Source of the DNA: Azolla caroliniana
Lineage: Eukaryota; Plantae; Polypodiophyta
Direction: 5' to 3'
NCBI GenBank assembly: GCA_043228905.1
Contig: JBHGNT010000015.1
Coordinates: forward strand, 992,001-1,056,000
Length of the DNA stretch: 64,000 nt
In this document: positions 21,791 through 44,500 of the stretch, piece after piece
How positions within the stretch are numbered: position 1 is the first letter of the stretch
Layout of the letters: every line of letters starts with the position of its first letter
Notes under the pieces: model-generated
What the model was told of the DNA's origin: nothing
The model's input: the letters and a program-made list of their open reading frames with translations, nothing else
Databases searched by the model: none
Translations under genes and position numbers: made by a program

Positions 21791-22849
21791 TTCTTCTAAT
21801 CTATTACTCTAGTACTCTAAAACTTTTGTAATCCCAATCTTGGGACATATTGTAATTTCTTTTCCTATGTTAATGAAAATGATTAAATTTCTTATTTCCC
21901 TTAATTGTTTAATATAAACATATGAATATGATATCCTCTGGTCGAAGGCCCTGGGGTCCTGCATCAAGTTCACATATCCTCGTCGTATTTTTGTGACACC
22001 AGTCCCCATACATCTGAATGGATTAAGTCGAGCTTGTTACGGCTCCAATTTCGTTCGGTGGGGAATGGAAGCTGGTGTTGCTTCCCGAGTTGGCATGCTT
22101 CACATATTTGGGCCTTGCGACCACTAAATGTTGGCAAACTGAAAACAACTTGTTTCGATTGCAGGTGTTGAAGCCTCCAATAATTGACGTGACCGATCCG
22201 CTTGTGCCAGAGATCGATGTCCGATTCGATCTTCTATCCTTTTGCAAACATAGCGGATCCTACGTCGTTGGTGTCGAGGATGAACATCCTCTCGTCCCGA
22301 CGCCCTTGCACGATTATCCGGCCTTCTTTGATGAAGCACCCGAGGTGTGTAAACCGCACTTGCATTCCCTGGTCAACGATTTGTCCGACCAAGACCAGGT
22401 TCTTTGTGATTGTCGGAACGTGTAGTACAAGATATACTCACAAAACAAAAGGAAAAATACATATACACACAACGTGATTTTGAACCCATGGCGAAATTCG
22501 TGAACCGAAAGAACGGGAATGTTCGTGTCAAGGAAGATTCGCTGACCGAAGGAGATGTTCGAGTTAAGTGTTCCGATCGAGAGAGTCGATCGATGAGAGG
22601 ACCAATGGAAGTTCCGGTCATATAGAGATGATGGTCAAGGCATGTGGGATCCACGTGCAAGGCAGTCTCCCACGAGCGTGCCATAATGTGTTACTGTACG
22701 AGATGTACAGAGGGCAAGGGTGGAATGTTATAATGTTGTTTATGTGTATCTTATTGGGACCAAATGGTCGAAACAAGGAGTGTGTAGGGATAGACACACG
22801 ACGATTAGAGGGTGCTTAAGCTAAACAAGAGAAAGTAGGCAACATACAA

Positions 22850-22881
<32 letters not shown>

Positions 22882-22905
22882 TGTTTTTAATTCAAAGAGG
22901 GTGGT

Positions 22906-22958
22906 GGTCTTAGGCAAACTAGTTTCGCTCAATAGTGGAGCTCTTCAGTGCAAAGACC
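22906..22958 (-). ncRNA. Minimal type I hammerhead ribozyme in the 3' UTR of the Penelope-like element
   Basis: Minus strand: GGUCUU-U-GCA CUGAAGA GCUC-cacuauu-GAGC GAAA C-UA-G UU UGC-CU-AAGACC. Full catalytic core (CUGANGA, GAAA, NUH=GUU), stem I, stem II and a palindromic ACUAGU stem III. Confidence 0.85.
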
Positions 22959-23066
22959 ATTACAACAAGAGAATGTGATTTATAAAGGGGTGGGAAGGAA
23001 GAGGGAGTGAGAGAAGGAGTGGGGAGGATTTGATTTGTGTAGTAGATGAGATAGAATAGAATGTGG

Positions 23067-23109
<43 letters not shown>

Positions 23110-23211
23110 GTGTGTAGGAAAGTGATAGGGAATGAGAGAGGGGGAATTAGTATAATGATGATGGTGAGGGGGGAGTTCTTAATGTGATGAAAAGGGGGAT
23201 TTAGGATAATA

Positions 23212-23415
23212 TTAAGTGGGGGATGTGGGTGAATTATTTGAAAACTTAGTGTTAAGTGGGGGATTTGGGTGGATTGTTTGAAACTTTAGTCTTAAGTGGG
23301 GGATTTGGGTGGATTGTTTGAAAATTTAGTCTTAAATGGGGGATTTGGGTGGATTGTTTGAAAACTTAGTTTTAAGTGGGGGATTTTGGTGGATTTTTGG
23401 AAAACTTAGTCTTAA
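23212..23415. repeat. 40-bp tandem repeat x5 at the PLE ORF stop
   Basis: TTAAGTGGGGGATTTGGGTGGATTGTTTGAAAACTTAGTN starts at 23212, 23252, 23292, 23332 and 23372. Confidence 0.95.
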
Positions 23416-25147
23416 CTAGGAGGGCATGTAAGGACTTAGATTTTGTCCAACATATGAAAGGGTGTGAGATGCTTTTAAGCTCAGGATCTAACATTAAGTC
23501 ATTATAGAGATTTTTTAGAAAACTATGAATGCCTAGTTTTGGGGTATGTTTGGTGTATCTAAGTTTAAAGATTGTGGGGTTAAGGGAAGTAATAGTTTTG
23601 GGTTGATATAAGAGTGTTTTTCTAATATTAAAAGGTATTTTCTTATAGCTTTTTAGTATAAAGGACGGAGGGTAACCACGGTTAACTAGTCTATTGAAAA
23701 AGAGTTTTTTCATTTGGTAGAAACCTAATGGGGTGCTTTCTCTAATGAGATATTTCTTCGCTTCATTAGTGATAAAGTGTTGTTTCGCATGGGAAGGATG
23801 ATCCGATGAAAAAGGCAAGTATTGGTATGAATTTAGAGGTTTTTGAAAACAATTGAATAAAAAAGATGAATTTTCGAGGTTGATCCATATGTCTAAAAAA
23901 GGTAGCCGAAAGGGGGAAGTTTGAATGGTAAGCTTGATGGAGTTATTTGTGTGTAAAGGATAAAAGTCGAGATATTCTAAAAGTTGAGATTTGGTGCCTG
24001 TCCAGACCCCAAATGCATCATCAATATAGCGGGTGAAGTAGAAGAGATGGGGGGGCGATGGTTGTAAGTTTTCGAGATATACTAAAAAGAGGCATGCATA
24101 TACGACTGAAAAGTTGCTACCCATGGCCGTACCTTTTATTTGTTGGTAAACTATGTCATCGAAAGTGAGATAGTGATATTCTAAAATAAGGGCACTAAGG
24201 GTATAGATGAGATTTGTTTTCGAAGGGGAAAAGTGGGGGGTGATTAGACTACGTAGGGCTTGGAGTCCTAGCTTAGGGGGGATACTAGGATAGAGAGATT
24301 CAATGTCAAACGTGAATAAGAAACTATTAGATGGTGGGTGTAGGTTTTCTAGTGATTGGATTAGTGTGTGAGAGTCTTTTAGATATTGTGGTTGGAGAAG
24401 GAGGATTGGTAGAAGTTGGTGGTGTAACCACTTCGATGTTTGTTCAAATAAGGAATTATTATATGAACAAATGGGCCGAAAACCCATAGGTGTTTTGTGT
24501 GATTTAGGGAGGAAATAGAGGTTGGATACTTGATATCCTTTTTTGGGTTTGTGGAGGATGAAATTAGCTTCAATTGGGGAAAGTGTACCTAAGTGGTTTG
24601 TTATTATGTTATTAAGGCGGTATAATAACTCTTCCAAGGGGAAGTGGCTAACTCTCTTATAGGTGGTAGAATTTGAGAGGTGTTCTATGGCTTTGGTGTA
24701 GTATGTGTCTTTATCTAGAACACATACTCCCATATTTTTATCGGTTGGGAGGATGATAATGTGTTTGTTGTGTTGGAGGCTTTTAAAGGCTCTAGAGAGG
24801 TGGTATGGGATTCTAGTGTTTATGGGCTTAGTGTTGTGTGCTATTTGGTTAAGGATGTGTTGGTGTTTTTCTATTATGGAGACTAGGGGTGGATATTTTG
24901 TGGGTGGCATCCAACTACGTGTAAATGTGTAAGTGTAATTTTGAGAGTGAGTAATTACGTATGTGTACACATGCACATGTGTGTGCATGTGGACGGATAC
25001 AAGGAGGTGTGAGTGAGTGATTGGTGTGACTGTCCGAGGGGGCTTGCACCCCTGTGTATCTACCCTTTTGTAACTATTTAACCCCTTACGGGGAATGAAT
25101 GAAGGAGGAAGGAATAGTTCTCTCACAATCTCTCTCTCTCTTGTCAT
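23372..25147 (-). CDS. Penelope-like reverse transcriptase (uninterrupted ORF; true start uncertain)
   Basis: 591 aa: PTDKNMG, LYFLPKSHK..FRPICS, FDIESLYPSIP, QQIKGTAMGS, RYIDD, LPFLDI, YLPFSSDHP, RLVNRGYP. Ends after the thumb/linker with no GIY-YIG. Confidence 0.85.
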   Translation of the reverse strand: MTREREIVRELFLPPSFIPRKGLNSYKRVDTQGCKPPRTVTPITHSHLLVSVHMHTHVHVYTYVITHSQNYTYTFTRSWMPPTKYPPLVSIIEKHQHILNQIAHNTKPINTRIPYHLSRAFKSLQHNKHIIILPTDKNMGVCVLDKDTYYTKAIEHLSNSTTYKRVSHFPLEELLYRLNNIITNHLGTLSPIEANFILHKPKKGYQVSNLYFLPKSHKTPMGFRPICSYNNSLFEQTSKWLHHQLLPILLLQPQYLKDSHTLIQSLENLHPPSNSFLFTFDIESLYPSIPPKLGLQALRSLITPHFSPSKTNLIYTLSALILEYHYLTFDDIVYQQIKGTAMGSNFSVVYACLFLVYLENLQPSPPHLFYFTRYIDDAFGVWTGTKSQLLEYLDFYPLHTNNSIKLTIQTSPFRLPFLDIWINLENSSFLFNCFQKPLNSYQYLPFSSDHPSHAKQHFITNEAKKYLIRESTPLGFYQMKKLFFNRLVNRGYPPSFILKSYKKIPFNIRKTLLYQPKTITSLNPTIFKLRYTKHTPKLGIHSFLKNLYNDLMLDPELKSISHPFICWTKSKSLHALLVKTKFSKNPPKSPT

Positions 25148-25225
25148 CTCTCTTTCTCACTCTCTTCCCTTACGTTGAAACCCCTTGGGAGGGGGGTGGA
25201 GCCATTCTAGGCACCACCCCCCACC

Positions 25226-25339
25226 TATCAGGAATAGTACTAAACAGAGAGAGGATTAGTACTAAACAAAGAATTAGTACTAGAGAAGGGAAGTACTATT
25301 AGAACTAAGAGGACGGGACTGTGTAAGACTCCCGAGAGA

Positions 25340-25383
<44 letters not shown>

Positions 25384-28300
25384 GATGATAACAGATTATA
25401 TATTATAAGAAAAGTAAGTACAGAAGGGCTATGAGGCTAAAGACTAGCGTTGAACCAATTTGGTTCAACATAATGCCTAGCGCCCTCTTTTATAGTGTTC
25501 TCAGGAGTTATCCTGAAGCTTCTAGAATGTTCCAGAGAAATCTGGAATATACATTAATTTCCTATAATAAAATGAAAATGAAAATAATATCGTACATATT
25601 ACAAAAAATGATATAATGGTTAAGAGCTCGACCCATATAACCTAAGGTCATGGGTTCGAGTCTTGCCATATCATGACACTATCCCCCCTTTAAAACGACG
25701 AGTGTCACGAGTCGTTTTGGATGGAGGACCCGGTTTGTGTGGATATTGACGATGGAAGTCTTCAAGAAGCGCACGAGCATTGGTCACATTCTTGATCGGT
25801 TCCCAAGTACGTTCGCTGGGACTATAGCCTAGCCAATCGACTAGATAGTAGAGCTTGTTGCGAACAATCTTGGAATCAAGGATGGCGGCAACCTCGTACT
25901 CTGGTCCATCTTCAAGCTCGATCGGGGGTGGAGGTTGTATAATACGTCTTGGGATGGTGCTCTCGTGATAGGGTTCGAGGAGAGAACTATGAAACACCGG
26001 ATGTATCCGAAGTTGAGGAGGTAGATCGAGACGAAAAGCGACATCATTAATCTTTCCGATAATACGGAAAGGACCTAATCGCCGATAATCCAACTTCTCA
26101 CATGGGCGAGTAGTCTTGATGTGTCGTCGTAGCAGCCACACCCGATCTCCAATGTTAAAACTAGATGGAAGTCGATGACGATCCGCATAGACCTTGTGTG
26201 TTTGTTGAGCTTGCTAGAGATGAGTAGATAAATCTGCTTGTATCTTGCGTAACTGCTCCAAACGATCCTCCGCACAAGGATTTGTGGACACCTCTGGAGT
26301 TTCAAGTACACTCCACCGAGGGTGACATCCCGTATAAGCATAAAATGGCGTAACTTTAGTCGATGCGTGGATAGAGTTATTATAGGCAAATTCGGCGAAG
26401 TGGAGAATCTCTGCCTAGTTATCCTGATGATAGCTAAGAAAGCACCGCAGATACTGCTCCAGCGTTTGATTTGTTCGTTCGGCTTGGCCGTCGGTTTGTG
26501 GGTGGTAGTCGGAGGAGAGGTTACAAGTGACCTTGAGCATTTTAAAAAGGTGCTTCCAGAATTTTGACACGAACTGGGGTCCACGGTCGTTGACGATACT
26601 ATTGGGAAGTCCATGATGCCGACATACTCCACGCATGACAATTTCGGCGGTGTCTTCACTGGAGATTTCCTTAGTACATGACAAGAAATGAGCCATCTTC
26701 GTATATCAATCTACCACTGTTAGAATCGCATTGAACCCCTTAGAGACTGGAAGATCTGTGATGAAGTCGAGAGCAATGGATTGCCACGGCTTGCTTGGAA
26801 TTGGTAATGGTTCTAATAAACCATATGGATGATGCCTTGGCATTTTCGCTCTGCAGCATGTATCACAAGTCCAAACAAAATCTTCGACAAATTGTCGCAT
26901 ACAGGGCCACCAGAATGATCGTTGTACTAAATCTAATGTTTTAGTACTACCAAAATGTCCAACTTTATATGTATCATGACAGTTTTGTACTACTCGAAGG
27001 CGGCAAGAACCATTAGGAACATACAAAAGTTCTTTAAAGAAGAGTAATCCATCATGGTATTTGAATTGCCGATAGTCCGTACATGGTGGTTGTGACTGTG
27101 AACACGACGCGCGAGAGGGATCAATTTGTGCTAGTATAGCTTGGGCGAAAGCATCTTTCTTCAGGTCCACACGTATGATATTGATAACGTGGGAATCCAT
27201 GGGCATGCCAAAAACCTGTGTTGCTTGCAGTCGTGCCGGTCCCAAGATTACTTGCTTTTGGTTATTGAAAGCCGGCTCGCCGGGACGTGGTGTTAGATAC
27301 GAACGCCGTGATAATGCATCTGCCTTCCCTTGGTGCTTTCCCGGACGATATGTAATTTTGAAGTCGAAACGCGTGAGGAAGTGGGCCCACCGAGCTTGAC
27401 GTCGATTTAACACACGAGCATCCTGAAAGTAGGCAAGGTTTTTATGGTCACTAAATACGGTGACTTGATGAGAGGATCCTTCTAAAAAATGCCTCCATTG
27501 CATAAACGAGTCCACTATTGCCAATAGCTCCTTATCATGAAATTCGTAATTGATTTCGGCGGCGTCAAACTTGCGTGAGTGAAAAGCCACAGGATGTAGC
27601 TTCTCATCATGACCCCGTTGTGACAGAATGCTCCCCAATGCGAAATATGATGCGTCAGCTTCGATAATGAATGGTTGTTCCGGATTCATGAGCTAGAATT
27701 GGAGCCGATGTAAATGCCTTTTTAAGATTCTCGAAAGCCATATCTGCTTCTTCAGACCAAACGAACGATTGTCCCTTCTTGGTAATCTGTGTGAGAGGCA
27801 GAACGAGCTTTGAGTAATCTTGTATAAACTTCCGGTAAAAATTGGCAAAGCCTAAAAAACATTGCACATCCCGCACCGAGCACGGAGCCTGCCATTCTAC
27901 CACCGTCTTGACCTTAGCTGGGTCCATGGAGATGCCTTCTGATGAAATGACGTAGCCGAGAAATTCCACCTGGTTGCACCCGAAACTACCTTTTTCTAGC
28001 TTTGCGTAAAGACCGTGTTCTCAAAGTCGTTTTAGTACTAACAGTACATGAGAATCATGCTCTTCTTCGGTCTTTGAATAAACCAGTAGATCATGCAAGT
28101 AGATGATCATACACACATCCAAGAGATCTCGGAATATATCATTTGCCATGTGCTGGAAGACTGCAGGCGCATTAGTGAGGCCGAACGGCATGACCGTATA
28201 CTCGAAGTGCCCATATCTAGTGCAGAACACGGTCTTCCATTCATCTTCTGGTCGGATCCGTACGAGGTTATAGGCCCCCCCGTAAGTCGATTTTCGTGAA

Positions 28301-30940
28301 GAACTTGGCACCATTGATCCGTTCTAAAAGACTTGAGATAAGGGGAAGTGCATACCTATTGCGGATTGTAACTTTATTCAAGCCACGGTAATCTACCACC
28401 AGACGAAGTGAGCCATCCTTTTTCTTGACGAAGAAAATGGGTGCACCGGCTGGAGATTTCGAATGTCGAATGAATCCATTCTCCAAATTCTCCTCTATAT
28501 AGGCTCAAAGGACTTCTAGCTCGGTTGGTGACAAATTGTAGATCGGTCCCCATGGTAGCTCTTTCCCCGGTTGTAAATCGATGGGGCAATCATATGGTCG
28601 ATGGTGAGGAAGCGTATTGGCTCGTACTTTATCGAATACATCGGCATAATGATGATACTTCTTTGGAAGTTGAACGATGGACTCCTCTTTAATGGTGTTG
28701 GAGAGTTTTAGTGATATTGGGAAGAGAAACATTTCTTCCTTGCGTCCTTCTTCCCGCAACTGATGTAGTGAAATGGTGGCAATCTTCTGAGTAGATCCTC
28801 GGGTTTGTCGACATTGGATTTCTCTTGTTCTCCAATCTATGTATGGGTTATGTAACTCAAACCATGGTAATCCCAAAACGATGGGATGTTCTAAGATACT
28901 AATAATGTTAAATGATACTACACATGCTAAGTTATCTAGGACAATATTAATGGGTTCTGACTCTTCTATGATATTTCCAGAAGCAATGGGACGACCATCA
29001 ATGACGACTATAGAGGCTGGTCACAAGAGTTTTCTAAGAGATATTTGATGAGCTTGGGCAAAATTCCTATCCATAAAGCAAGAATTAGCTCCGGAGTCTA
29101 GAAGTGCTAAGACGTGTATTGGAGGGGTACTTTTAGTACTAACTGTTACTTGGGCTACGAACACATTGCTAACTTGCTTAGAGGGAATGGAACCACTAAT
29201 GGGCTGCACAAATCTAGGGTTGTCCAACCAAACGGCTCCTATTTTGGCTGGACTTAGTCGTTTAACTCTTCTTCTAACTGACTAAGGACATCAAATTTGT
29301 TCGTTAGATCTAGGCTATTAGTACTATTAGTACTATCAGATATCCCTACTGTAATAGGCTCGGGTTTAGTACAATTAGAACTAGCAACTATTTGGTTTAC
29401 CTGTCTTCTTGGCCTATGGGGACAATTTATTGCAATGTGTCCTGGTCCACCGCAGTAGAGACATAGTCAATTTGTTCGGCGTCGCTGCTTTTCTTCTTCG
29501 GATAATGGTCCTCGACAACGTGTAGTGTCAATCTCCATTGGAGTCGGAGTATTCACTAGAGGCGCATTATAGTACTCCCTGGGTAAAGGTTTTGCTACCA
29601 TTGAGGCGTAGGTGGGCTCTGATCTTGCCCTCGGCATCTGTAGTTGTCATTCCGAACGTCGCTCAAAGAGGCGGTTATCACATCTCACCGCGCAATTGAT
29701 TGCTTATGTTAAGGACTTTGGCTCTTCAGGGAAAGTCAAGAGTAAATCCTTGACATCGTTGTGTAAACCATAACAAAATTGCTCCATCAACGCGTGATCA
29801 TCCCAAGGGATGTCAGCGGCGAGTAGGCGGAAATCTGCAGCGTATGCAGAGGCTAGACGGTTTCCTTGGCGTAATCGCCGGATTTTGTTGATTGCGGTCC
29901 TTATGTTGTCAGTATCCCCAAAGCATGATTTAAACTCACCTATAAACTCTTCAAAGTTGTTGAGTAGTGGAGACTCCTTTTCCAACAGTGGAGCGAACCA
30001 TGCCAATGTTGAGCCACTTAACAACGTCCCTACTAAACCCAGTCGTGATGCATCGGTAGGATATCGGGAAGGATGCATTTGAATAACTAATCGTACATGA
30101 TTAAGGAACCCTCTAAACTGCGCTCGTGTTCCATCGAACTTCGTGGGAAGGCCAATCTTGGGCTCCTTATGAATCCCTTGTGTTCTGGGGCCTTGTTGTT
30201 GCATCGCTATGATGGTTGCTTCGAGTTGTTGCACGCGTAATGCAAGTTCCCCATGTTGTTGTTGCGTTTGCTGCTTTTCTAAGGAGATTTGTTGAAGATC
30301 CCCCAGTAATCGTTGATTTTCTTGTTCCAAAGCAAGGAACTTCTCTTTCAAGCATTGAAACTCCGAGAAAACAATTTGATATTCCTGAGCGCTAATTGTG
30401 GCCATGGGATGAAAAGAAAAGAGGAATAAGAGATTAGTATGAAGGGAGAGAGACAGAAGGGAAATTTGGTTCAAACTGTCAAGAATAGTACTAAATAGAG
30501 AGAGGATTAGTACTAAACAAAGAATTAGTACTAGAGAAGGGAAGTACTATTAGAACTAAGAGGACGGGACTGCGTAAGACGCCCGAGAGAGGAAGAGAGG
30601 AGAAGAGAGAGAGAGATAGCGAGGACGAGAGAGAGAGAGAGAGATGATTATAACAGATTATATATTATAAGAAAAGTAAGTACAGAAGGGCTATGAGGCT
30701 AAAGACTAGCGTTGAACCAATTTGGTTCAACATAATGCCTAGCGCCCTCTTTTATAGTGTTCTCAGGAGTTATCCTGAAGCTTCTAGAATGTTCCAGAGA
30801 AATCTGGAATATACATTAATTTCCTATAATAAAATGAAAATGAAAATAATATCCTACGTATTACAATAGATGATATAATGGTTAAGAGCTCGACCCATAT
30901 AACCTAAGGTCATGGGTTCGAGTCTTGCCATATCATAACA
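25226..30940 (-). mobile_element. Full-length but frameshifted Tcn1-like chromovirus (gag-PR-RT-RH-IN-chromodomain)
   Basis: LTRs 25226-25678 and 30477-30940; 5-bp TSD CCACC; PPT next to 25679; gag 29704-30474; LLDSGANSCF; RT/RH/IN fragments; chromodomain EYEVAAILDSK..YLVDWLGY (25671-26141). Confidence 0.93.
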
Positions 30941-31668
30941 CCACCCCTCAATGCTTGTCAATCACCATCATATTCTCTCTCACCATCATACCATTCATCA
31001 TCTCCACTATTACACCATGTCTATCTTCATCATCAATCATCATCATTATCATAAATATTAACTCTAACCCTAAAACATACAACACACACAAGGAGCTTAA
31101 ATGCCAACTAAAGGAATTTGAAGAAGTAAGAAAGAGCACCCAAGTTGAGCTCCAATACCCCAACAAAGAATTGTGAGTCATGCCCGCCCAATTGGAAGAA
31201 AGGAAGAATCTTATCTCATATGGCATCCAAGGCCTTTGAGTAGAGATCTAACCAAAATATTGGAGAACCAATAGGTTGTTCACTTGGAGTACATGATGCA
31301 CATTGAAGATGCATTAGCAACAACCGGCATTAAGTTGCACAATATAAACATGGAACTAATACAAGTGCATCGAAATATCTAGGCTAATAAAAATGAAATC
31401 CAATGTCTCTTCATAGAATGGAAGAAAATTGGAGTTAACCTCTACTCAATAGGAGAAGAGAGAGATGCATATAAAGTTGCAATTGTAGTGATCATATTTG
31501 TTAAAAAAACCTATATTTTATGTTTAGAACATGTTTTAGAATACTCTTAAGTATTTTGCATGTATTTTGTGTTTTAGAACAACCATTTTGAAATGTTTCA
31601 CATATTCTACATATTCTAAGGATTTTAAAAAGGGGTAGAATACATAACATACACATTGTATGCTAAGT

Positions 31669-32775: not shown

Positions 32776-35091
32776 TGCGATCTCGGCCATCTGGCCGACG
32801 CCCTAAGCCAGTCGAAGGCACTTCCGACTCGGCGGTCACGGACCAGCTTTTCCAAGAAATATCGGAGGCTCACCAGTTGCAATCCTCGCCACCTGCTACT
32901 CGATCACGAGTTGAGTCCACACCAACCTCTCCACCAAGCCCTCCAGAGGTCACCCACCCTGACCCTAACCCTTTTCCGGTTTTGGAAGACCCTGAATTCG
33001 ATACCTGCCGTATCCTTACCCACGATACACCGACAACCCCGACGCGGAGTCGCACATCTGTGCCTTCGTGTCCACCTGGCAGGCCAACCACTTAACACAG
33101 CAATTCTCACCTGCCGAAATCGAGGCGTCAAAAATTGCCGAGTTTACGCTATCCCTCGATGGACCAACCACGCGATGGTATTCTTGCCTCGACACAGGGG
33201 AGTTTGTCACCTTCCACGATGTTCGCACGTAGTTCCTAGAACTGTTCCATCGCGAGGTGCCCAAACGAGAATTTCTCCGACAATTCTTTTCCATGCGACA
33301 AGAACCGCACGAGACAGTCGCACAGTTCACGATCCGGTTCCAGGATCTCTACAGACAAGTGGCCGACGATGTCTCTGCATAGCACATTCCGGACGCATTC
33401 CTATCCAGCCTACGGGAGCCTCTACGGACGACTCTCGCACTTACTAATTTTGCCAACCAAACAATCGAGCAAGTCATAGCGCGCGTCCTCGCCCTCGATC
33501 GGATTCAGCAAAGCACGACTTTCTCTATGAGTTCACTGCAAAGCGCCCTTCCCTAGGAGGACAATCACTTCCACCAAGCCCTCCAATGCACAGTTTGCTC
33601 GGGGATCGGGCCATCTGGCCCTCAAATGTCCTCACCGGCCACAGTGTCTGATCTACCAGTCCCGATCTCACACTGTCGAGCACTGTGAATACAATATGCT
33701 CAACCGCACAACGACGGCCCCGGTTCACCAGATCGAGCCCAGGGATACATACTCTCGTCAGGACGAGCGACAATCCTACCGGAACCAGGGTAACCAACGA
33801 CCCCGATCGCTGGATAGACGGCGTCGTGACGACGATTACCATCGGGACGATGACCGTTACCAAAACGACAACCGACGGAGATCAGACAACCGTCGTGATC
33901 GCTATCATGATGACCAGTATCGGGCAAACGACGATTATGATCGGAATGAAGATGATTGGGAGGACCAATATGATCAGTGAAATTCCCGTAATGATCAGCG
34001 CAACTCTCACCGAGGATTGCGCAACAACAGAAGGAATAACGACAACCGTCTTCGGGACCCCCCGCAAAATGAACCGCGCAGCTCGAACGCGCCCTGGACC
34101 AACCCTCCAACACACGAGGCCAGGAATCAACCGCACCCCCCCACACACACAGATCGGGCTGGCACCAGCAACTCGGTCGTCGTTACCTGCTTCAAGTGCA
34201 ACCAACCTGGTCGCTACGCTACGCAATGCCAAACAACAGACCGCGGAAAGGCTCCTGTCGTGAATAGTATTATGGCCTATGTGCAAAACGTCACAACACG
34301 CTGTCGGGGTTACTACGCCCTTGCGTGTAGAAAGGAGGAGGGACCACGGGGGTCTTGGACCGAAGAGCAAGAGAGAGAGGAGTAAGAGAGAGAGACCCGA
34401 TTACACAGAACCGAAGATCCGATTGCGCAGAACCGGCAATTGCACAGGGACACGGCCCAACAAACAGAGACCACAAATAAACGCCGACGCAGATGGACGC
34501 AACAACGAAAGATATGTACTTATGAATACAAGAAAATAACAGACTAAAGTATTACAACCCACGGTGGGGCACGAAATAGATACTAACGAAAACGAACAGG
34601 GCGGCGAACAGATGCCGACCCCCCTGTATGTCTTGACGCACAGAAAGGGAAATCAGGTCGGAGGTGCTGCAGGACGCACTCGGGGCGTTCCACGGAACAG
34701 CGCAAGCCTCCTCGAAACCTGCACAGGTACGCGATGGAGCAGAAGACAAAGAAAACAGGAGTGAGAGAGAAGCTCCGAAATCGGTTCGGCAGCACTTCGT
34801 CCTCTCCGCGCGAGATCCCCCCTTCTCCTCTTCCTCTTCCTTTTTATTGCCCGTCAAGAGGCCGTTTGGCATTAACTGCATACCAAACGAATCTTCCCCC
34901 TCCGATCCTCGTATGTACCCACTTCGTCCTTAGGTACTTCTTGGCGCGCGTGTGTGTGTAGAGCCGTTTCCCACGCCTTGTTCCTCCGATTCCTCTCGTG
35001 GGCGGTTTTCTTCACGACATCCGCCCCCACCTAACCGCGCATCCACCGGCATGCGCCAAGTTAAGTTGGCACGGAGAAAACCGGCCCGCCT

Positions 35092-38000
35092 TTACTCTTC
35101 GCCTGCCGGCCCTTCCTCGGCCTCGGATCGGTCGTCGCTGCTGTCCAGGAGAATCGGGTCGGGTTCGTCGTCGTGCCGCTTCTTGAAAGCTTTGATCCTC
35201 TTCCCGGCCACGGGTATCGCTATTCTCGTACCGTCGAGTTCCGCCAGATGATATGTCCCGTTGTCGTTGGCGCTCTGTACCGTGTACGGCCCGAACCATC
35301 TCCGTGCGAACTTCCGCGTTGCTCGGTGCTGGTTGTCGAGGCTGCTGTCGTAGACGAGCACCCAGTCACCTTCGTCGATTTTCTTCGGTCGTAGCCGGTG
35401 CGTTCGGTCGAACCGGGCTTTGTTCTTTGTCCTCGCCACCCGGAGCTTCTCCGTAGCCAGTGCCACGTCCTCCGGTCTCCGCTCGAGCTGTCGTATACGT
35501 GCGGCCAACAACTCCTCCCGGCTCATCTCGTCCCGCCAGTCGACCGCTGCCCACGAGGAGATCGTCCGTTCAATCGGCATGATCGGCTTCTGGCCGAACA
35601 TGAGCTCCGTCGGCATGTACCCGGTTACCGAACTGTGCGTGGTCCGGTCTGCCCACAAAGCATAAGGTAGAAGTCGCGGCCAGTTGCCGACTTGGCCTCC
35701 GCATGCCCGAACCAGCGCCTTAACGATCGGCCCGTGTCCGCGCTCCACCTTTCCATTCGCCTCCGGGTTGTACGCAGTGGTGAGCGAGAGTTTGACTCCC
35801 AGCCGATCGAACAGCTCTGCGGCTTCCTCGGCGTCCAACTCCCCTCGGTCAGCCACGATCTTCCCGACGCACCCGTACCGGCATATCACGTCCTCGATCA
35901 GGAACCGACACACGGCCGCGGTCGTCTTGTTCTGAAGGGCTCGGCCTTCCACCTGGTTCGTCAGGTCTTCCCGCGCTAGCACCAGATACCGCATCTGTCC
36001 TACCCCCATCGGCATCGTCACCAGATCTACCATCCATTTGAAGTGGATAGTCGGAGGGTACGTAGGGTGAAGCCCGTCCCGGTGTCGGACTATCGAGTGC
36101 ATCTGACAACTCTCGCAAGTTGACACGAACCGATGCACGTCCCGGTACAATCCCGGCCACCAGTACTTCCCCTTCAGCTTCTCAAACGTCGCCCACGTTC
36201 CACGGTGTCCAGCCCAAGGGCTGTCGTGGTAGGCCGCCAGTAGCTCCTCCTGTTCTTCCTTCATCGCCACCACCCGGAGCGGGACGCCGTTCCTCTTCTT
36301 CGGGTGCCTCCACAAATGCCCATCTCGAAGAAAGAATCGATATGCTTTCTTCCGGATCCGGTTGGCCTCGTCCTTCGTCCATGACGCATCGGGCGTCATT
36401 GTCTTCAAAAACCCGCCAATCTGCAGCCACTCCCCGTCGTACTTGCTCGCGTCGAACTCGTTAAGCGCCGGAGTGCTCATCCCGTCGGTCGTTATGTATG
36501 CCGCCTCGAAGAAATCCACGCCGACTTCTTCGTCTTCCGAAACCATGCCGCCCTCGTCGTCGAACCTCGCCCTCGAAAGCATGTCGGCCATGGCGTTGTC
36601 TTTCCCGGAAACGTGTCGTATTTCCGGGTCCAGGGACTTGATGTACGCTATCCACCTGAGCATCGCCAGGTCCGGAGTCGCGCATCCGGAAACCATACCG
36701 AGAATCGGCAGGCAATCCGTCTCGATGATCACTTCTGTCCCTATCAGGTAGTCTTTGTCGGCCTTAACCGCCGAAACAATACCCCAGAGTTCGCGTTTAA
36801 CCTGGGCGTATCCTCGTTGCCGTTTACTGAGGACTTTCGCGCCGAATCGGATCGGAAACCGATTGCCGTCCTCGTCTTCCTGGTTCACGACCCATCCGAT
36901 CCCGGTCGGACTGGTATCCACCGTTATGAATACCGGGGTACCCTTCCCGTATACCGCCTTCCGGAGTGCCGGTGCCGCTGCAAGGGCCTCTTTCAGCTTC
37001 CGGACCGATTCCGCGTGCTCGTCTAGCCATTCGAACCTTCGCCCCTTTTTCAGCAACCCGTACAGTGGCTCCGCGACGTGCGCGTAATGCGGGATCCATA
37101 TGTGGTAGAAGGCGCATGCTCCCAAGAATCGTCGTACTTCCGTGACCGAGCTGCATTCAGGCTTCATCGCGGAGATGGCTTCTATCTTTGCCGGAGACGG
37201 TTTCCGGCCATATGGTCCACATAAATGTCCGACCACCATGATTTCCGACTGCCCGAATGCTGACTTCTCCCCCGAGAAGGTGAGTCTCGCATCCTCTAGC
37301 CTTTGCAGCACCTTCTCGCAGTCGTCGATGTGCGTCGCCACGAATCGCCGGCATCCGTCCGGCCCGATCGTCTCGTCCTTTTCTTCCACCGGGCATCCCT
37401 TGATCGGGATGTCGTCCAGAAACGGCATGGTGATGTCCGGGATACAGTCCTTCAGAACCTTGTTCATCGCATTCACCATGTGGGCCACCGAGTTGGTCCC
37501 TCCTTGCGGCAGTGTACACATCCGAACTAGGCCGAGGGGAGTTCGCATCGTCGTAATGTCTCTACTCTCCACGGCTAGCTGGAATTGGTCGTACCCTGAA
37601 TATAGATCACCGACCGAGTAAATCGACCTTCCGGCGAAGGCCTCCGCGAACTCGTCTACGGTCGGTCCGATCCCTGCGTTCCGGATGGTCACCCTATTGA
37701 CCGGTTGCAGGTCCTGAATGAAGCGCAATGATCCGTTTTTCTTTGGCACGGTAAACCACCGGTTCGAGTACGGGGCGCTCGACGGCTCGAGAATGCCCAT
37801 CTCAACTTTCTGCTTCAACAACTCCATCAACTTCGGGATGTGAGCTCTCGGAACCGGAATTGGCTTGAGATTCCACGGTACATGCGGTACCGTGAATATC
37901 ACCATCGGCTCTACGATCGTCGGGTCTACGCACCCGATTTCTTCCGGTGAGAATGCGAAGGCTTTCCCGTGCCTTCCGAGCATCCTCCGAAACCGGTCTT

Positions 38001-38355
38001 CCTCCGCCGGCAGTAGGAACCCGCCCCCACCGATTTTGAGCTCTCGGAGCGTCTCGTCGGTGAAGGTGTGCCCTATGCAGGCCGGATCTCGTAGACTAGG
38101 GTCCGATGCAACCCCTTTGATTCTCGACGCGCTGTCCTCCGGTAAGGGTGCCGCGACTGGCCTTACCTTCCGGTCCACAGTCTTGTACTTGGTGCTTACG
38201 TGGGCCGTCCGAACTGACTCGAGCCCTCGACCGAAGTCCGCGATGACTTCGTACATCTCCTCGGAACACACCGGTATCGTCCGGTCTTCGTTAAGGCCTT
38301 CTTCGACTACCTTTTCCAGCATTCCCATGGTGTCGTCGAATGAGACCGCCTCCAC
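35092..38355 (-). CDS. Pol (RT-RNase H-integrase) of copy A, probably translated by -1 frameshift from gag-PR
   Basis: 1087 aa: DLYSGYDQ, LPQGGTNS, FLDD, RNase H VDTS..ELWG, HHCC, DDE. The frame stays open up to the slippery site at 38583-38589. Confidence 0.93.
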   Translation of the reverse strand: MEAVSFDDTMGMLEKVVEEGLNEDRTIPVCSEEMYEVIADFGRGLESVRTAHVSTKYKTVDRKVRPVAAPLPEDSASRIKGVASDPSLRDPACIGHTFTDETLRELKIGGGGFLLPAEEDRFRRMLGRHGKAFAFSPEEIGCVDPTIVEPMVIFTVPHVPWNLKPIPVPRAHIPKLMELLKQKVEMGILEPSSAPYSNRWFTVPKKNGSLRFIQDLQPVNRVTIRNAGIGPTVDEFAEAFAGRSIYSVGDLYSGYDQFQLAVESRDITTMRTPLGLVRMCTLPQGGTNSVAHMVNAMNKVLKDCIPDITMPFLDDIPIKGCPVEEKDETIGPDGCRRFVATHIDDCEKVLQRLEDARLTFSGEKSAFGQSEIMVVGHLCGPYGRKPSPAKIEAISAMKPECSSVTEVRRFLGACAFYHIWIPHYAHVAEPLYGLLKKGRRFEWLDEHAESVRKLKEALAAAPALRKAVYGKGTPVFITVDTSPTGIGWVVNQEDEDGNRFPIRFGAKVLSKRQRGYAQVKRELWGIVSAVKADKDYLIGTEVIIETDCLPILGMVSGCATPDLAMLRWIAYIKSLDPEIRHVSGKDNAMADMLSRARFDDEGGMVSEDEEVGVDFFEAAYITTDGMSTPALNEFDASKYDGEWLQIGGFLKTMTPDASWTKDEANRIRKKAYRFFLRDGHLWRHPKKRNGVPLRVVAMKEEQEELLAAYHDSPWAGHRGTWATFEKLKGKYWWPGLYRDVHRFVSTCESCQMHSIVRHRDGLHPTYPPTIHFKWMVDLVTMPMGVGQMRYLVLAREDLTNQVEGRALQNKTTAAVCRFLIEDVICRYGCVGKIVADRGELDAEEAAELFDRLGVKLSLTTAYNPEANGKVERGHGPIVKALVRACGGQVGNWPRLLPYALWADRTTHSSVTGYMPTELMFGQKPIMPIERTISSWAAVDWRDEMSREELLAARIRQLERRPEDVALATEKLRVARTKNKARFDRTHRLRPKKIDEGDWVLVYDSSLDNQHRATRKFARRWFGPYTVQSANDNGTYHLAELDGTRIAIPVAGKRIKAFKKRHDDEPDPILLDSSDDRSEAEEGPAGEE

Positions 38356-38579
38356 GGCTCCGTTGATTTCCTCGTCCGGGCCGAGAACTCCGCACGCTCG
38401 AAGTCTCCCCTCCGCCTTTGTCTTCTCTCGGCCGCCGATGCCGACTATCGTACACGCTCCGCTGTCGGAGAACCAAAATTCCCTACCTATGATACAAGGT
38501 TTCTTCGGTTTTATCGTACAGGTGTGGGGTTTTCCCGGGGTGTCCGGACTGTCGCGGCCCCACGCCTTGGCAGCCCTCT

Positions 38580-40706
38580 TTAAAAATCCTCTCGGTTATC
38601 GGAGCCGAGGGAGTCGCGGTTACGCTCGTGGTTCGGCCTGACCGTCAAAAACTGGACCGAATGGCGCCCGTCCTGGCTCTTGACCCGCGCATAGGCCGAA
38701 CCGTTGTCCAGCACCTTGGTCTCCATTCGAGCCGCCGTGATGTACGGCTCTCCCAGTATGACGGGATGCGAAGACGTCTCCTGCACGAAGAAGTGCTGGT
38801 CAATCTCGACGTCGCCGATCTTGACTCGCACATTCGGACAGGCCCCGTGCAGTTCCTCGGTGGCGCGCGTTGCTGCCCTTATTTTCCACCCGTGCTTGGT
38901 GTTGATCGGCCATTTGCCCTTCTTATAGAAGTCCATGGACATCAAATTGATCTCCGATCCGTGGTCCACCAAAGCTATCACTGGTTCCTGGACATCGCCG
39001 ATCTTTACCGGGGTTTCTGTGGTCGCTCGGGCCCAGTGTGGTCTCGAATAGTGGCTTTCCGCCCACTCGTCTCCCAGCGCCATGTCGTCTAGGTGCGTCG
39101 TCCGCACTTCCACCGGTCTTTCCGGTTCTGTCTCCATCGACAGCCTCTTCCGTTTCACTAAGTCCACGATGGAGTCATGGAACTCCTTCTTGGCGATTCC
39201 CAGCACCTCTCGTAACGACAGCTCCACCTTGCTGTCGAGGATCCGTTCCTCCAGGACCTTTCGTAAGTCCGTGGTTCTTTCTATCTCCGTCCCCAGACGG
39301 TACCCGCCCTTCTGGGGTTTATCTTGCGTACCGGCCCCGCCGGCTTCGTCCCGTCGTGGCCCGGACCGGGTCTCGTATCGTTGTGAGGGCCCGGTCGTCC
39401 CGGTTTTCCCCACCCGCTTCTCTTCTACCAGAGCCTCGTAGTTCCGGCAAGCGGCTTCCACGAAGCCCGTCTTTTCCTCGACCGGGTCGCTCCACCCGGT
39501 CATCTCCCGTATCCGTTTCTCCGCACGGTCCGATTCCTCCCTTTTAAGCCCTGCACCGGCAAGGCCTTCCAGCATCGTCGGCCAGAATCCGACTTTGCTT
39601 TCCTTTCGGGCCTCGCCGCCCCCGACTCGAATACCGGCCGACGCCGAGTAGTGGACGGTTTCCGCATGTCGGGCCGCCGCCTCTTCCATCAACCTCTTCA
39701 TTCCGCCTCGCCCGTCGTTTCGGTTTAGGGCCCTTCTCGTGTCGTTGGCGTGAACCCGGCCTTCCCATAGGTACACCACCTGGTTCCTCAGCGCCTCTGC
39801 GAAATCGCCGCAGTCTTTTCGGATGTGGCCGACCCCGTCGCACCACATGCACCTGTTCCCCGCCGCCGGCCGTCGGTCACGAGCAGGTCCTCCGCCTTCT
39901 CTGCGGGCTTGTGCGATTTGGAGGTCTTTTATCGCCCTCGTCAGTTCCTCCAACGCAGCTCCTCCAGTCGAGCCTCTGATCTCGCCGGTCGGAGCTGAAC
40001 CGGATTCCAGCCACTCCCGAGTCTCTTCCCTTCGCACCGGCTGCGCCGGCTCGAGTTTCCTCGCCGCGACTGAGCCCGACCCGGTTGCTCTGTCATCCTC
40101 CCATTCTCGCCGTTTGTCGAAACGGCCGCAGGCTCTCTTGACCGCCGTCCAGTCGGCTGTCAGCCCGTCTTCGGTTTCTAGCAGGGCGCCCACGTGACTC
40201 CGATCCCTCTCGTCAACCGATTTGATGAACAGCAGGACCCGGCTTGTATCCAGGACCATCCTGTCAAGCGCCGAAAGGCGCGCGAAGTTCTCCTCGAACT
40301 CCCGGAGGAGTGCCGACGCATTCCTTCCTTTCCCGGGAGACTCCACCCACTCCATGAAGCTTCGCTTCGAAAGCCGGAGCGCGTCGTCCAGTCCGTATTT
40401 CTCCAGGAGCCGACCTTCGAACTCCTCCCAGGTACGGCTCTCCGCCCGCACCTCGAGCACCTCCGCGTGGATGCTCGGCATCGCCACTCGGGGAAAACCG
40501 GCAAGACGCCTGTCTTCCGGAATGTCCCGCATTAACATTTCCGCACCGTAGGACGCCAGGTACTTCGTGGCATCCTTTCCGGTGAATCGACCGATCGTTC
40601 CGACGACCGCCTCAATAGCTCTATCGAGGGCGCCGGTGCCCTCGCGCGCGCTTACTATCCGATCCACGGCCGAAGCCATGGCCTCTGCAAGATCCGCCCC
40701 CTTCAT
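38580..40706 (-). CDS. Gag-protease of copy A
   Basis: 708 aa; CCHC knuckle CMWCDGVGHIRKDC; aspartic protease ALVDHGSEINL. Confidence 0.9.
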   Translation of the reverse strand: MKGADLAEAMASAVDRIVSAREGTGALDRAIEAVVGTIGRFTGKDATKYLASYGAEMLMRDIPEDRRLAGFPRVAMPSIHAEVLEVRAESRTWEEFEGRLLEKYGLDDALRLSKRSFMEWVESPGKGRNASALLREFEENFARLSALDRMVLDTSRVLLFIKSVDERDRSHVGALLETEDGLTADWTAVKRACGRFDKRREWEDDRATGSGSVAARKLEPAQPVRREETREWLESGSAPTGEIRGSTGGAALEELTRAIKDLQIAQARREGGGPARDRRPAAGNRCMWCDGVGHIRKDCGDFAEALRNQVVYLWEGRVHANDTRRALNRNDGRGGMKRLMEEAAARHAETVHYSASAGIRVGGGEARKESKVGFWPTMLEGLAGAGLKREESDRAEKRIREMTGWSDPVEEKTGFVEAACRNYEALVEEKRVGKTGTTGPSQRYETRSGPRRDEAGGAGTQDKPQKGGYRLGTEIERTTDLRKVLEERILDSKVELSLREVLGIAKKEFHDSIVDLVKRKRLSMETEPERPVEVRTTHLDDMALGDEWAESHYSRPHWARATTETPVKIGDVQEPVIALVDHGSEINLMSMDFYKKGKWPINTKHGWKIRAATRATEELHGACPNVRVKIGDVEIDQHFFVQETSSHPVILGEPYITAARMETKVLDNGSAYARVKSQDGRHSVQFLTVRPNHERNRDSLGSDNREDF

Positions 40707-41520
40707 TTCCTACTCTTCTGCCGCCTCTTTCACGTCGGGTTCACCAAGATGTCGGGGTTACTACGCCCTTGCGTGTAGAAAGGAGGAGGGACCACGGGGG
40801 TCTTGGACCGAAGAGCAAGAGAGAGAGGAGTAAGAGAGAGAGACCCGATTACACAAAACCGAAGATCCGATTGCGCAGAACCGGCAATTGCACAGGGACA
40901 CGGCCCAACAAACAGAGACCACAAATAAACGCCGACGCAGATGGACGCAACAACGAAAGATATGTACTTATGAATACAAGAAAATAACAGACTAAAGTAT
41001 TACAACCCACGGTGGGGCACGAAATAGATACTAACGAAAACGAACAGGGCGGCGAACAGATGCCGACCCCCCTGTATGTCTTGACGCACAGAAAGGGAAA
41101 TCAGGTCGGAGGTGCTGCAGGACGCACTCGGGGCGTTCCACGGAACAGCGCAAGCCTCCTCGAAACCTGCACAGGTACGCGATGGAGCAGAAGACAGAGA
41201 AAGCAGGAGTGAGAGAGAAGCTCCGAAATCGGTTCGGCAGCACTTCGTCCTCTCCGCGCGAGATCCCCCCTTCTCCTCTTCCTCTTCCTTTTTATTGCCC
41301 GTCAAGAGGCCGTTTGGCATTAACTGCATACCAAACGAATCTTCCCCCTCCGATCCTCGTATGTACCCACTTCGTCCTTAGGTACTTCTTGGCGCGCGTG
41401 TGTGTGTAGAGCCGTTTCCCACGCCTTGTTCCTCCGATTCCTCTCGTGGGCGGTTTTCTTCACGACAACGCAGCAAAGCCCAGGCTACCCCATGGCAAGT
41501 ACAGGATGAAGTCCGGCAAG

Positions 41521-44500
41521 CAGCCAAAGAATGGATGGATACGGCCAACAAAAACAATGTGGTGCGCATGCAAACAGAAATGGGAGACGCGACTATCGGA
41601 GCAACACAGTCCTCAACACCATCCACGTCGACAGAAGATGACCAGTTGTGGGACGCCCTTACCAATTCCAGGATCTCCTTGCCTCTGCATAAACTCTTAC
41701 CACTCATGACGCGTTTTCAGGACACCTTGGCTACACTCACGTCCAACACCCATTCCACCGCGCCATCTGTGCACTTAACCGAGCTAGGAACGGGTTCACC
41801 CCTCATGGATGCGCAGAATCTAGCCATAAAAATTATGATTAAAGGAAGGGACTTGCACGGGTGCATAATCGACGGTGGCTCTGGCGTGAATGTCATCAAC
41901 GAGGCTACCTACTAGAAACTCGGCCTAAATCAATGGGAACCTTGCCCCTTTTGGCTTCGGATGGCTGACACACGATTGGTTCGGCCCATCGACTTTACTC
42001 TAGGAGGCCACATTTTCACTATCTCGGCCATTGTATTATGACTCGAAGCACAGGGGGCTTACCCAATGTTACTGGGCAGACCATGGTTGCACACAGCAAA
42101 TATCAAACAACATTGGCAGCGCAAAATGATCTCGTTTCGCCGAGGAAAGACCAAGGTCCGGAACATAACCGAAGAACGCGTACCCACACCCCACAACACC
42201 TCGCCGTTATACGCGGAAGGGGTGCACATGCTCGACGGGTTAGCCGATGGCGAGGTGGATGACTTCCTAGAAGACCATCCCACTATCATACCGAGCGTGC
42301 CAAATTGTGTTAACCATTTTGTTGGAAACACCTTCGATATGCCTACAAGCTATCGGTATCAAGGGAAGTGTAACGTGAAGACTTGCGCACGGAGGCGTCG
42401 TTAGGGGAAGAAAACGGAGAGCATACCCGGAATAGAGCCCGGGTCATATACGTAGTTGAGACCTTAGAAACGACGGTTGTAATGGCGGTTGTCTTCAACG
42501 TAGTTCGTTGTGATCTCACAGCTGTAACCGGGCGTGCCAAATCGCGGCTACTAGGGAGGATTAAGGGCGGTTGTTGCCGCGTGAATGTCGCCAGTTTCTC
42601 CTCTGCGGCTTGCCATAGGTCAGTAGCCTGTTTGGCTTGCTGATGCGCCGTTTTGATACGTCGGGCCATGTCCTTGGCTACCCGAGTAGTGTGGTGTAGA
42701 TTGCGATATGCCTCGACTAAGGCCATGTTCAAATCTGGTAGTTCCATGAGGAGCGAAGCATTCTGTACTTGCTTCTTCCATCCTATCTTCTGTAAGGCTC
42801 GATCCTCATGAGGTTCGATTTCACCCATTAGAGCGCGTTGAATCATCTTTGTTGATACCACTGCTTTGGCCATACAAGCGGCGGTAGCTACTTAGGCGTG
42901 CGCGACGAAATCCATTAACTCATAAGTTGTGCCCAGTCAAAGTAGTGCACTGAACTCGTATGCCTCCATGGGGAGATCTTTGTAACTGAGGACTTCCTCC
43001 TCTGATATCTGCGTGGTTTGTCCATGCTCGATCGTACCGACTTGGAGCCATGACTCTGCTGGTACTATGTCCGTGGAGGTGGGGCTGGCCTCTTTTGATT
43101 TCTGACGTTGGTCACCTTCGGTTTCTGTGGTTGCCTCTCGAATGATGCAGCGTCTTTTTGGCAGCTGATCTTGTGCGTCNNNNNNNNNNNNNNNNNNNNN
43201 NNNNNNNNNNNNNNNNNNNNNNNNNNNNNNNNNNNNNNNNNNNNNNNNNNNNNNNNNNNNNNNNNNNNNNNNNNNNNNNACAGCCAAAGAATGGATGGAT
43301 ACGGCCAACAAAAACAATGTGGTGCGCATGCAAACAGAAATGGGAGACGCGACTATCGGAGCAACACAGTCCTCAACACCATCCACGTCGACAGAAGATG
43401 ACCAGTTGTGGGACGCCCTTACCAATTCCAGGATCTCCTTGCCTCTGCATAAACTCTTACCACTCATGACGCGTTTTCAGGACACCTTGGCTACACTCAC
43501 GTCCAACACCCATTCCACCGCGCCATCTGTGCACTTAACCGAGCTAGGAACGGGTTCACCCCTCATGGATGCGCAGAATCTAGCCATAAAAATTATGATT
43601 AAAGGAAGGGACTTGCACGGGTGCATAATCGACGGTGGCTCTGGCGTGAATGTCATCAACGAGGCTACCTACTAGAAACTCGGCCTAAATCAATGGGAAC
43701 CTTGCCCCTTTTGGCTTCGGATGGCTGACACACGATTGGTTCGGCCCATCGACTTTACTCTAGGAGGCCACATTTTCACTATCTCGGCCATTGTATTATG
43801 ACTCGAAGCACAGGGGGCTTACCCAATGTTACTGGGCAGACCATGGTTGCACACAGCAAATATCAAACAACATTGGCAGCGCAAAATGATCTCGTTTCGC
43901 CGAGGAAAGACCAAGGTCCGGAACATAACCGAAGAACGCGTACCCACACCCCACAACACCTCGCCGTTATACGCGGAAGGGGTGCACATGCTCGACGGGT
44001 TAGCCGATGGCGAGGTGGATGACTTCCTAGAAGACCATCCCACTATCATACCGAGCGTGCCAAATTGTGTTAACCATTTTGTTGGAAACACCTTCGATAT
44101 GCCTACAAGCTATCGGTATCAAGGGAAGTGTAACGTGAAGACTTGCGCACGGAGGCGTCGTTAGGGGAAGAAAACGGAGAGCATACCCGGAATAGAGCCC
44201 GGGTCATATACGTAGTTGAGACCTTAGAAACGACGGTTGTAATGGCGGTTGTCTTCAACGTAGTTCGTTGTGATCTCACAGCTGTAACCGGGCGTGCCAA
44301 ATCGCGGCTACTAGGGAGGATTAAGGGCGGTTGTTGCCGCGTGAATGTCGCCAGTTTCTCCTCTGCGGCTTGCCATAGGTCAGTAGCCTGTTTGGCTTGC
44401 TGATGCGCCGTTTTGATACGTCGGGCCATGTCCTTGGCTACCCGAGTAGTGTGGTGTAGATTGCGATATGCCTCGACTAAGGCCATGTTCAAATCTGGTA

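Follow-up and report, generated by a model that had tools for sequence, protein, structure and literature searches.

Introduction

Penelope-like elements (PLEs) that lack an endonuclease (EN) have been described as generally restricted to chromosome ends, and the way in which EN-less families insert genome-wide is posed as a question by Craig et al. 2021 (PMC8557442). EN-minus PLEs have been listed for Selaginella, pine and spruce (PMC9033089). 'Selagine1' is printed beside Coprina, without the insertion-in-fingers, in Fig. S1 of PMC8557442, which leaves it as an open question how the EN-minus PLE-X elements integrate. Here we describe an EN-less PLE of the fern Azolla caroliniana, first noticed as a reverse transcriptase (RT) open reading frame (ORF) in a window of 64,000 nucleotides (contig JBHGNT010000015.1, here C15, positions 992001-1056000) of a genome of 523 Mb in which 22 contigs are of chromosome size. 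A count of 122 DYW domains, some of them with a KP-like start, a motif that marks ferns, hornworts and lycophytes and not mosses, makes a fern host plausible and a moss less likely. We consider it probable that this is a dispersed land-plant Coprina element of the Selaginella Sm1 type, and that its RT copies RNA onto the 3' DNA ends of pre-existing breaks. Several young families occur in this one genome, and the junctions that can be read in them suggest that breaks are captured and that priming is internal and positioned by a hairpin.

Results

The PLE copy in the window

A sequence-only reading of the window had described an uninterrupted PLE-type RT ORF of 591 aa with YIDD and a GYP thumb, and the frame is there: 594 codons without interruption at 23372-25156 on the minus strand, 591 aa from the first Met, with a PLE RT core. 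The same reading called this RT intact and bounded the element at 22882..25147, and on both counts it has to be revised. The first 80 of the 594 codons are chance read-through from a flanking repeat, as comparison with empty copies of that repeat (506 candidates genome-wide) revealed, leaving 514 codons encoded by the element, and the true 3' end (22745/22750) lies about 130 bp further on than had been proposed. The features of the insertion are as follows.

22745..24917, minus strand: EN-minus PLE copy of family A, 5'-truncated, delimited by homology to other copies and by empty sites at both edges
23372..24916, minus strand: element-encoded part of the RT, 514 aa, N-terminally truncated, with no insertion-in-fingers and no C-terminal endonuclease
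24919..25156, minus strand: flanking multicopy repeat (the target), outside the PLE, into which the ORF runs on for 80 codons; it adjoins 22560-22745 in empty copies
24918..24918, no strand: extra base at the 5' junction, matching neither the element nor the empty site
22745..22749, minus strand: 5-nt microhomology that the target has with the 3' priming window of the element, from filled versus empty sites (L052-L062)

The copy represents ~2.17 kb of a ~5-kb unit. Relative to the 662-codon RT frame of longer copies (P0002) it is without ~148 N-terminal residues, within which the conserved IHNLS and LGLKY motifs fall, and it reads TDKN, A-D-K being invariant in 38 aligned relatives. Its RT is 97.9% identical, without gaps, to that of another copy (L033), so it should be fairly young, and it is likely an inactive fragment because ORF1 and the RT N-terminus are missing. 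Compared with the empty site, the insertion is a blunt join in which nothing was lost or duplicated and one base was added, in agreement with the earlier statement that there is no target-site duplication (TSD). No telomeric array was found at the copy, as had also been noted. The window RT had no match in Pfam or in a sequence search of the PDB.

A Coprina-type RT without an endonuclease

The predicted structure of the RT (mean predicted local distance difference test, pLDDT, 85) had telomerase reverse transcriptase (TERT) as its best PDB fold match (E 1.8e-12). Its sequence homologs, of which 169 were found and 120 listed, are PLE RTs, and a custom hidden Markov model (HMM) detected a C-terminal GIY-YIG domain in 40 of 122 homologs. 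In a tree of 120 rows (two short rows dropped; quick method; supports are from the Shimodaira-Hasegawa-like approximate likelihood ratio test, SH-aLRT), family A and a related family, B, fell within a clade of 31 EN-less rows (100%) that includes Selaginella LOC112343723 (39% identity to the element RT), sequences from Ginkgo and Cryptomeria, and a cluster of which a Picea glauca protein is a member. This clade sits in a 54-row EN-less clade (96%) which is itself nested among EN-plus rows. The RT3-RT4 motifs are near-identical to those of 'Selagine1', and their spacing is the same as in Selagine1 and canonical PLEs, without the insertion-in-fingers of Naiad/Chlamys. By its sequence, then, the RT groups with Coprina, by way of a Selaginella protein with 'Selagine1'-like motifs, in a tree whose rows hold no named Repbase sequence. 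Membership in PLE-X was ruled out by the lack of the insertion-in-fingers, and inspection by eye of the sequence that precedes the RT core in P0002 and P0124 showed no CxC motif. Judged by RT clade and architecture the element is an EN-less PLE of the Coprina type that lacks the telomere association. To call it a little-described lineage, as the sequence-only reading did, was an overstatement, the land-plant branch of Coprina-type EN-minus PLEs being known from Selaginella and conifers.

Two database entries deserve mention. KUM45112.1, annotated as a Picea glauca mitochondrial gene, belongs to the element's PLE RT clade (P0023 cluster), and Ginkgo Gb_40217 (1305 aa), the single longer homolog, looks like a fused gene model and gave no nuclease match.

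We found no evidence for a GIY-YIG endonuclease in or around the ORF, as had been reported, or in other copies. Pfam detected no GIY-YIG in P0002, P0124 or P0123, and did detect it in a positive control (P0040). A custom profile built from 12 PLE endonuclease ends recovered its controls at 6e-48 and 2e-12 (the first control is inside the profile) and left all six frames of the six element stretches without a match (E 1.4 at best), which is the outcome of the all-frame HMM search that the sequence-only reading had proposed. The RT frames of families A and B end after the thumb extension (P0002, P0124), without the C-terminal GIY-YIG and CCHH motif of Penelope/Poseidon (Dryads) and Neptune. Genome-wide, PF01541 had one match among nine candidates, an exon with no PLE RT beside it, which we take to be an SLX1-like host exon, and a PLE-type EN query returned nothing among five candidates, a search without a positive control that is weak alone. 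Because longer and full-length copies are also without GIY-YIG, its lack is not an effect of truncation, and the description of an endonuclease-less PLE at interstitial sites stands.

Anatomy of the families

The full unit has the order R (a terminal repeat), ORF1, RT in an overlapping -1 frame, 3' untranslated region (UTR), hammerhead, R. For family A, 40 of 117 candidates were scored, at 91-100% alike within the query. Family B was found by searching with the 5' part of family A (124 candidates) and includes an apparently intact full-length copy, L092, in which ~200 nt of R beginning at the hammerhead cut precede a 754-aa ORF1, a 661-aa RT overlapping it in the -1 frame, the 3' UTR, the hammerhead and R. 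The sequence A-AAA-AAC is an established frameshift signal, and in both families it lies in the ORF1 frame with a stem downstream, a predicted -1 frameshift site that would give an ORF1-RT fusion. For EN-minus PLEs, Fig. 1 of PMC8557442 likewise shows a frameshift. The dN/dS between the RTs of families A and B is ~0.06, with dS near saturation. ORF1 consists of a helical N-domain and a low-complexity tail. The N-domain has 18 relatives at E<=0.001, and its model has long helices and no strands (pLDDT 75), with no PDB match at E<=0.001; an Atlas search with ORF1 gave no usable match.

Family C (279 candidates) has a 2.2-kb unit in which the hammerhead, R and hairpin are kept and no RT or ORF1 homology was found. 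Its copies (L226, L229, L230-L231, L232) are non-autonomous, carry a duplicated priming signal and often occur as repeated blocks of 3.6-6.4 kb that include flank. We considered rolling-circle arrays for this family and found them unsupported, as each block in the inspected arrays looks like 1.3 units together with flank. Families D and F were each sighted once. R is direct in L092 and in tandem copies and inverted in L079, as in the pseudo-long terminal repeats (pLTRs) of PLEs, and most copies are truncated, 5' truncation being frequent in PLEs. RNA contigs from three doubtful runs held scattered, mostly diverged pieces only, and we weighed them neither for nor against.

Two further observations concern ORF1. 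In the family A ORF1 of L033 and L031, ~3960 bp upstream of the 3' end, the hairpin and priming window recur as an in-frame near copy (~29 nt, two mismatches), with no counterpart at this position in family B. The near copy may represent a junction that was captured, or an additional site of priming. Locus L081 (C2:8107326-8108991) has two diverged ORF1 5' ends in opposite orientation, ~800 bp apart.

RNA signals at the 3' end

The sequence-only reading had missed two signals in the 3' region of the window copy, a hammerhead and a conserved hairpin, which are listed here with the segments around them.

22745..22916, minus strand: segment R of the terminal repeat, bounded by the predicted hammerhead cut and the 3' end; L092 and tandem copies have it again ahead of ORF1
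22758..22769, minus strand: hairpin of 4 bp and 4 nt just 5' of the priming window, with 20 of 20 cells paired in five families
22776..22782, minus strand: conserved CACTCCT motif ahead of the hairpin, in columns invariant in five families
22905..22959, minus strand: motif of a type I hammerhead ribozyme, in which stem III is short and palindromic; the cut is predicted to fall between 22917 and 22916

Three of the four hairpin pairs have a compensatory change, and none of 500 shuffles scored as high, in a comparison of only five related sequences with a structure picked by eye. The hairpin is predicted to position the RT. In 27 of 28 copies with a 3' junction (one duplicate and one copy without an anchor were omitted), the element match stops 6-13 nt beyond the hairpin, at tail positions 10-17. 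In tandem and full-length copies, sequence continues from the hairpin region to the ORF1 start codon, and because the same 3' sequence reads on in this way, priming is likely internal.

The hammerhead core is invariant in the five families, 97.8% of its cells are paired and stem III stays palindromic, although covariation alone is not significant (92 of 500 shuffles). The motif came from a pattern search; an Rfam search found no hammerhead at E<=1 or at the gathering score. A short palindromic stem III marks the dimer-forming type of hammerhead (PMC4209133). The 5' ends of L079, L092 and L149 lie within 1-4 nt of the predicted cut, which suggests hammerhead cleavage in vivo. Separately, a high-copy long terminal repeat (LTR) with 54-bp repeats, hit by several PLE insertions, carries the word pair CTGATGAG...GAAAC, which resembles a hammerhead core (seen at ~3300-4060 of L081 and in the flanks of L092 and L036).

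Junctions and target scars

Microhomology at the priming junction could be scored in the 17 of 28 copies that have an empty-site proxy. It measured 6, 6, 2, 2, 3, 3, 3, 1, 5, 3, 3, 2, 1, 5, 0, 0 and 0 nt, a mean of 2.65 nt, against null means of 0.35 for a random register and 1.42 for the best of nine registers; none of 20000 simulations reached 2.65. In family B, seven independent junctions had microhomologies of 1-4 nt. No shared target sequence was found beyond this microhomology.

The scars left at the 29 independent family A insertions were varied. Six copies are bounded by direct duplications abutting both junctions, of ~105, 125, 260, 480, 815 and 980 bp, whose two members are 93-100% alike; two (the window copy and L039) are blunt; three have target deletions of 13-22 bp, read by eye; and five are joined to another PLE piece. 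Two more lie in satellite and are ambiguous, and in 11 the scar was not readable. No short TSD was seen among 11 resolved family A sites. Two family B copies have duplications of ~60 and 111 bp. The joints between PLEs take several forms: at L040, families A and C stand back to back and one and the same satellite flanks the pair at either side, L050 carries ~33 nt of family C in inverted orientation, L079/L045 has an inverted R of family A, and L014 and L026 are head-to-tail PLE chains. Other searches yielded joints of A with D at L080 and of B with B at L136/L147. These are not chance neighbours, because a PLE occurred in only one locus among 458,585 bases fetched for other reasons. We read this mix of blunt joins, small deletions, 105-980-bp duplications and families back to back as a signature of break repair, and the spectrum resembles endonuclease-independent L1 capture at breaks more closely than nuclease-defined insertion.

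Could the nicks have been borrowed instead? They might be supplied in trans by the endonuclease of a long interspersed nuclear element (LINE), by an EN-plus PLE that escaped detection or by a host enzyme that ORF1 recruits, and insertion would then be ordinary target-primed reverse transcription. LINE-type RT frames are present in the window, two staggered nicks would give target duplications, PLE TSD length has been described as variable (PMC8557442), and our genome searches scored best candidates only. We nevertheless regard borrowed nicks as unlikely: two genome queries, the second without a positive control, disclosed no PLE-type GIY-YIG, the range from deletions to a 980-bp duplication comes with neither short TSDs at the resolved sites nor a target consensus beyond microhomology, and open breaks account better for captures in which different families occupy the two ends.

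Distribution along chromosomes

Family A has at least 40 dispersed copies; 36 of 40 matches are on 17 of the 22 large contigs, at a median of 6.4 Mb from an end. Family B occupies 35 places (repeat matches in one locus and small contigs are omitted from this count) at a median of 4.7 Mb from an end, none of them within 100 kb. There is a mild excess near chromosome ends, and most copies are interstitial. We surveyed 40 end stretches of 10 kb, of which eight have a telomere array and 32 have none in the assembly.

These data bear on a second alternative, that the element attaches to telomeres as a Coprina element would, and that its interstitial copies are by-products or were moved inward by later rearrangement. 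Its closest named relative is the telomere-associated Selaginella element, the mild excess near ends is in its favor, and so is one locus at an end of C7: L160 (C7:3715-7900) is the family F copy, its R contains degenerate telomere-like repeats, and it abuts the telomere array. Against this, seven of the eight telomere-bearing ends are free of PLEs in 10 kb, and the eighth, which holds the family F copy, has it with the sense strand facing the tip, a polarity opposite to attachment at an overhang, and cut by the array inside ORF1. Telomere repeats were absent from the first 60 nt of the 3' flank in all 28 copies and from the priming windows of five families; the reverse-complement telomeric repeats that lie next to the hammerhead in telomere-associated Coprina were not found; and interstitial repeats are cleanly interrupted, with empty sites known. 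On balance we hold telomere attachment to be quite improbable. L160 also has a short TTTAGGG at its 5' junction and an Asn-Pro run in ORF1 encoded by (AACCCT)n, and it is possible that its telomere-like features are relics of telomeric ancestry.

A ~178-bp satellite lies directly inside most of the telomere arrays seen and also at many contig ends, and several PLE copies are inserted in it (satellite loci L093, L096, L156, L159, L161, L163, L167 and L168). One family A copy, L022/L044 (C1:21397850), is inserted in an array that resembles 5S rDNA.

Simple repeats and neighbors of the copy

The window copy includes three simple or tandem repeats.

22854..22881, no strand: (GA)14 tract inside the element, of variable length among copies, not the target site
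23071..23106, no strand: (GA)18 tract in the 3' UTR
23212..23415, no strand: tandem repeat of a 40-bp unit (5.1 copies) that overlaps the RT stop codon

The sequence-only reading had the 3' end abutting (GA)n and proposed priming at microsatellites or breaks, of which the second is favored by the junction anatomy and the first is not: the tract is internal, because all 30 copies fetched with their 3' region run ~105-110 bp past it to a common terminus at ~22746-22750, and the table of 28 flanks, which that reading had suggested drawing up, has no microsatellite bias (a dinucleotide run within the first 60 nt in one copy, and only homopolymers of 5-7 nt in five). Priming at (GA)n, or a truncated EN-plus PLE, has in its favor that the tracts are close to the 3' end and that Naiad, Chlamys and Neptune have a microsatellite bias (PMC8557442), and it is refuted by the 3' junction table and by full-length copies without an EN (L092).

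Elsewhere in the window, a chromodomain gypsy element (25225-30942, LTRs 91-98% alike) lies in the same repeat as the PLE, ~300 bp away. Two near-identical GC-rich gypsy-type elements are inverted at 34294-52901, with arms of 6114 nt that are 100% complementary and, between them, a 1760-bp direct repeat and an N gap; they are either very young insertions or an assembly artefact. A host gene of the DUF1191 family is found at 2408-3964 on the minus strand, with a single database relative (37% identical).

Discussion

How would an RT without a nuclease of its own enter the chromosome? We propose that the RNA is transcribed from the upstream repeat, that hammerhead cleavage sets some of its 5' ends, and that a -1 frameshift at A-AAA-AAC yields an ORF1-RT fusion. 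The RT would bind near the CACTCCT motif and hairpin and start internally, 6-13 nt or less downstream, with any DNA 3'-OH that offers 1-6 nt of pairing as the primer. The end of the cDNA would then be joined by host microhomology-mediated repair or, alternatively, would jump to another PLE RNA or meet a second cDNA from the opposite end of the break. Duplications of 0.1-1 kb might arise where the lesion is two distant nicks or a collapsed fork. For the window copy, this scheme would involve a blunt break, a 5-nt priming match and synthesis halted after ~2.17 kb.

Several observations weigh against priming at pre-existing breaks or against parts of the case for it. The case is built from sequence, in which breaks are read from their scars. 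The microhomology count is lenient: where there were several empty copies the best was used, in one case the proxy is a further PLE and not a genomic target, three cases contain a mismatch and three of the 17 are zero. Thirteen of the 29 target sites are without a readable scar, and TSDs of up to 8 nt are not rigorously excluded there; one deletion call uses empty copies that are only 75-78% alike. EN-independent L1 insertions have been described with deletions, and long duplications are not met in the available part of that description (PMC1920257). The tree is supported by SH-aLRT only, with no named Coprina reference sequences among its rows, and the ORF1 fold covers the N-domain, the low-complexity two thirds being outside the model. 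Lastly, two of 36 family A copies are within 100 kb of an end (~0.3 expected), six of 35 family B places are within 500 kb of one, and the family F copy is in contact with a telomere array.

A bolder proposal, to which we give a little less than an even chance, is that the land-plant branch left the telomere, a hairpin-positioned promiscuous window having replaced the telomere-complementary landing site, and that it now multiplies solely by patching breaks and collapsed forks. Such patching would proceed from one end or from both, draw on the RNAs of several families and leave tandem duplications of 0.1-1 kb. If this were true, the element would be a retrotransposon with an obligate dependence on break repair, and it would answer directly how EN-minus PLEs spread genome-wide. 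The junctions described here also bear on primer recognition by a telomerase-like RT and on one source of tandem duplications in the genomes of seed-free plants. The intact-looking L092, together with a non-autonomous 2.2-kb family that has the RNA signals alone, makes the model directly testable.

We found no literature on PLEs in ferns or on the junction anatomy of dispersed Coprina elements, most subscription papers being out of reach, and the conifer EN(-)PLE work of Lin et al. 2016, known to us through PMC9033089, could reduce the novelty of our observations.

Comparison with known systems

Among described elements the closest are the Coprina PLEs of Selaginella moellendorffii, Sm1/Sm2 ('Selagine1', PMC8557442), which share with the fern element the lack of an EN and of the insertion-in-fingers and near-identical RT3-RT4 motifs. 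Further likenesses to Coprina are the canonical type I hammerhead (PMC4209133), the two ORFs of Coprina-1_Alen (PMC13159263), and an ORF1 with long helices followed by a frameshift, here a predicted one, before the RT. Unlike Sm1/Sm2, the fern element is not restricted to telomeres and has no reverse-complement telomeric repeats at the priming site; it has instead a covarying hairpin, a promiscuous microhomology window and break-type scars. The conifer EN(-)PLEs are similar in that relatives from Cryptomeria, Ginkgo and Picea glauca share its clade and have no GIY-YIG.

PLE-X, an EN-minus Chlamys subgroup of Chara and Selaginella (PMC8557442), is likewise EN-less and hammerhead-bearing, and is genome-wide in Chara, but it is a Naiad/Chlamys element that has the CxC motif and the insertion-in-fingers, whereas the RT of the fern element falls in another clade. 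Internal priming has been demonstrated biochemically for an EN-plus PLE, Poseidon PAc of Anolis, in which reverse transcription likewise starts at a stem-loop near the pLTR/ORF junction (PMC11167929). However, PAc nicks with its own GIY-YIG and starts without target homology, while the fern element has no EN and an excess of microhomology. Finally, endonuclease-independent L1 insertion (PMC1920257) likewise involves break capture, target deletions, extra nucleotides and template switching. There it is a rare side path of an EN-plus LINE, whereas several active fern families appear to use break capture solely, and in them long duplications are frequent.

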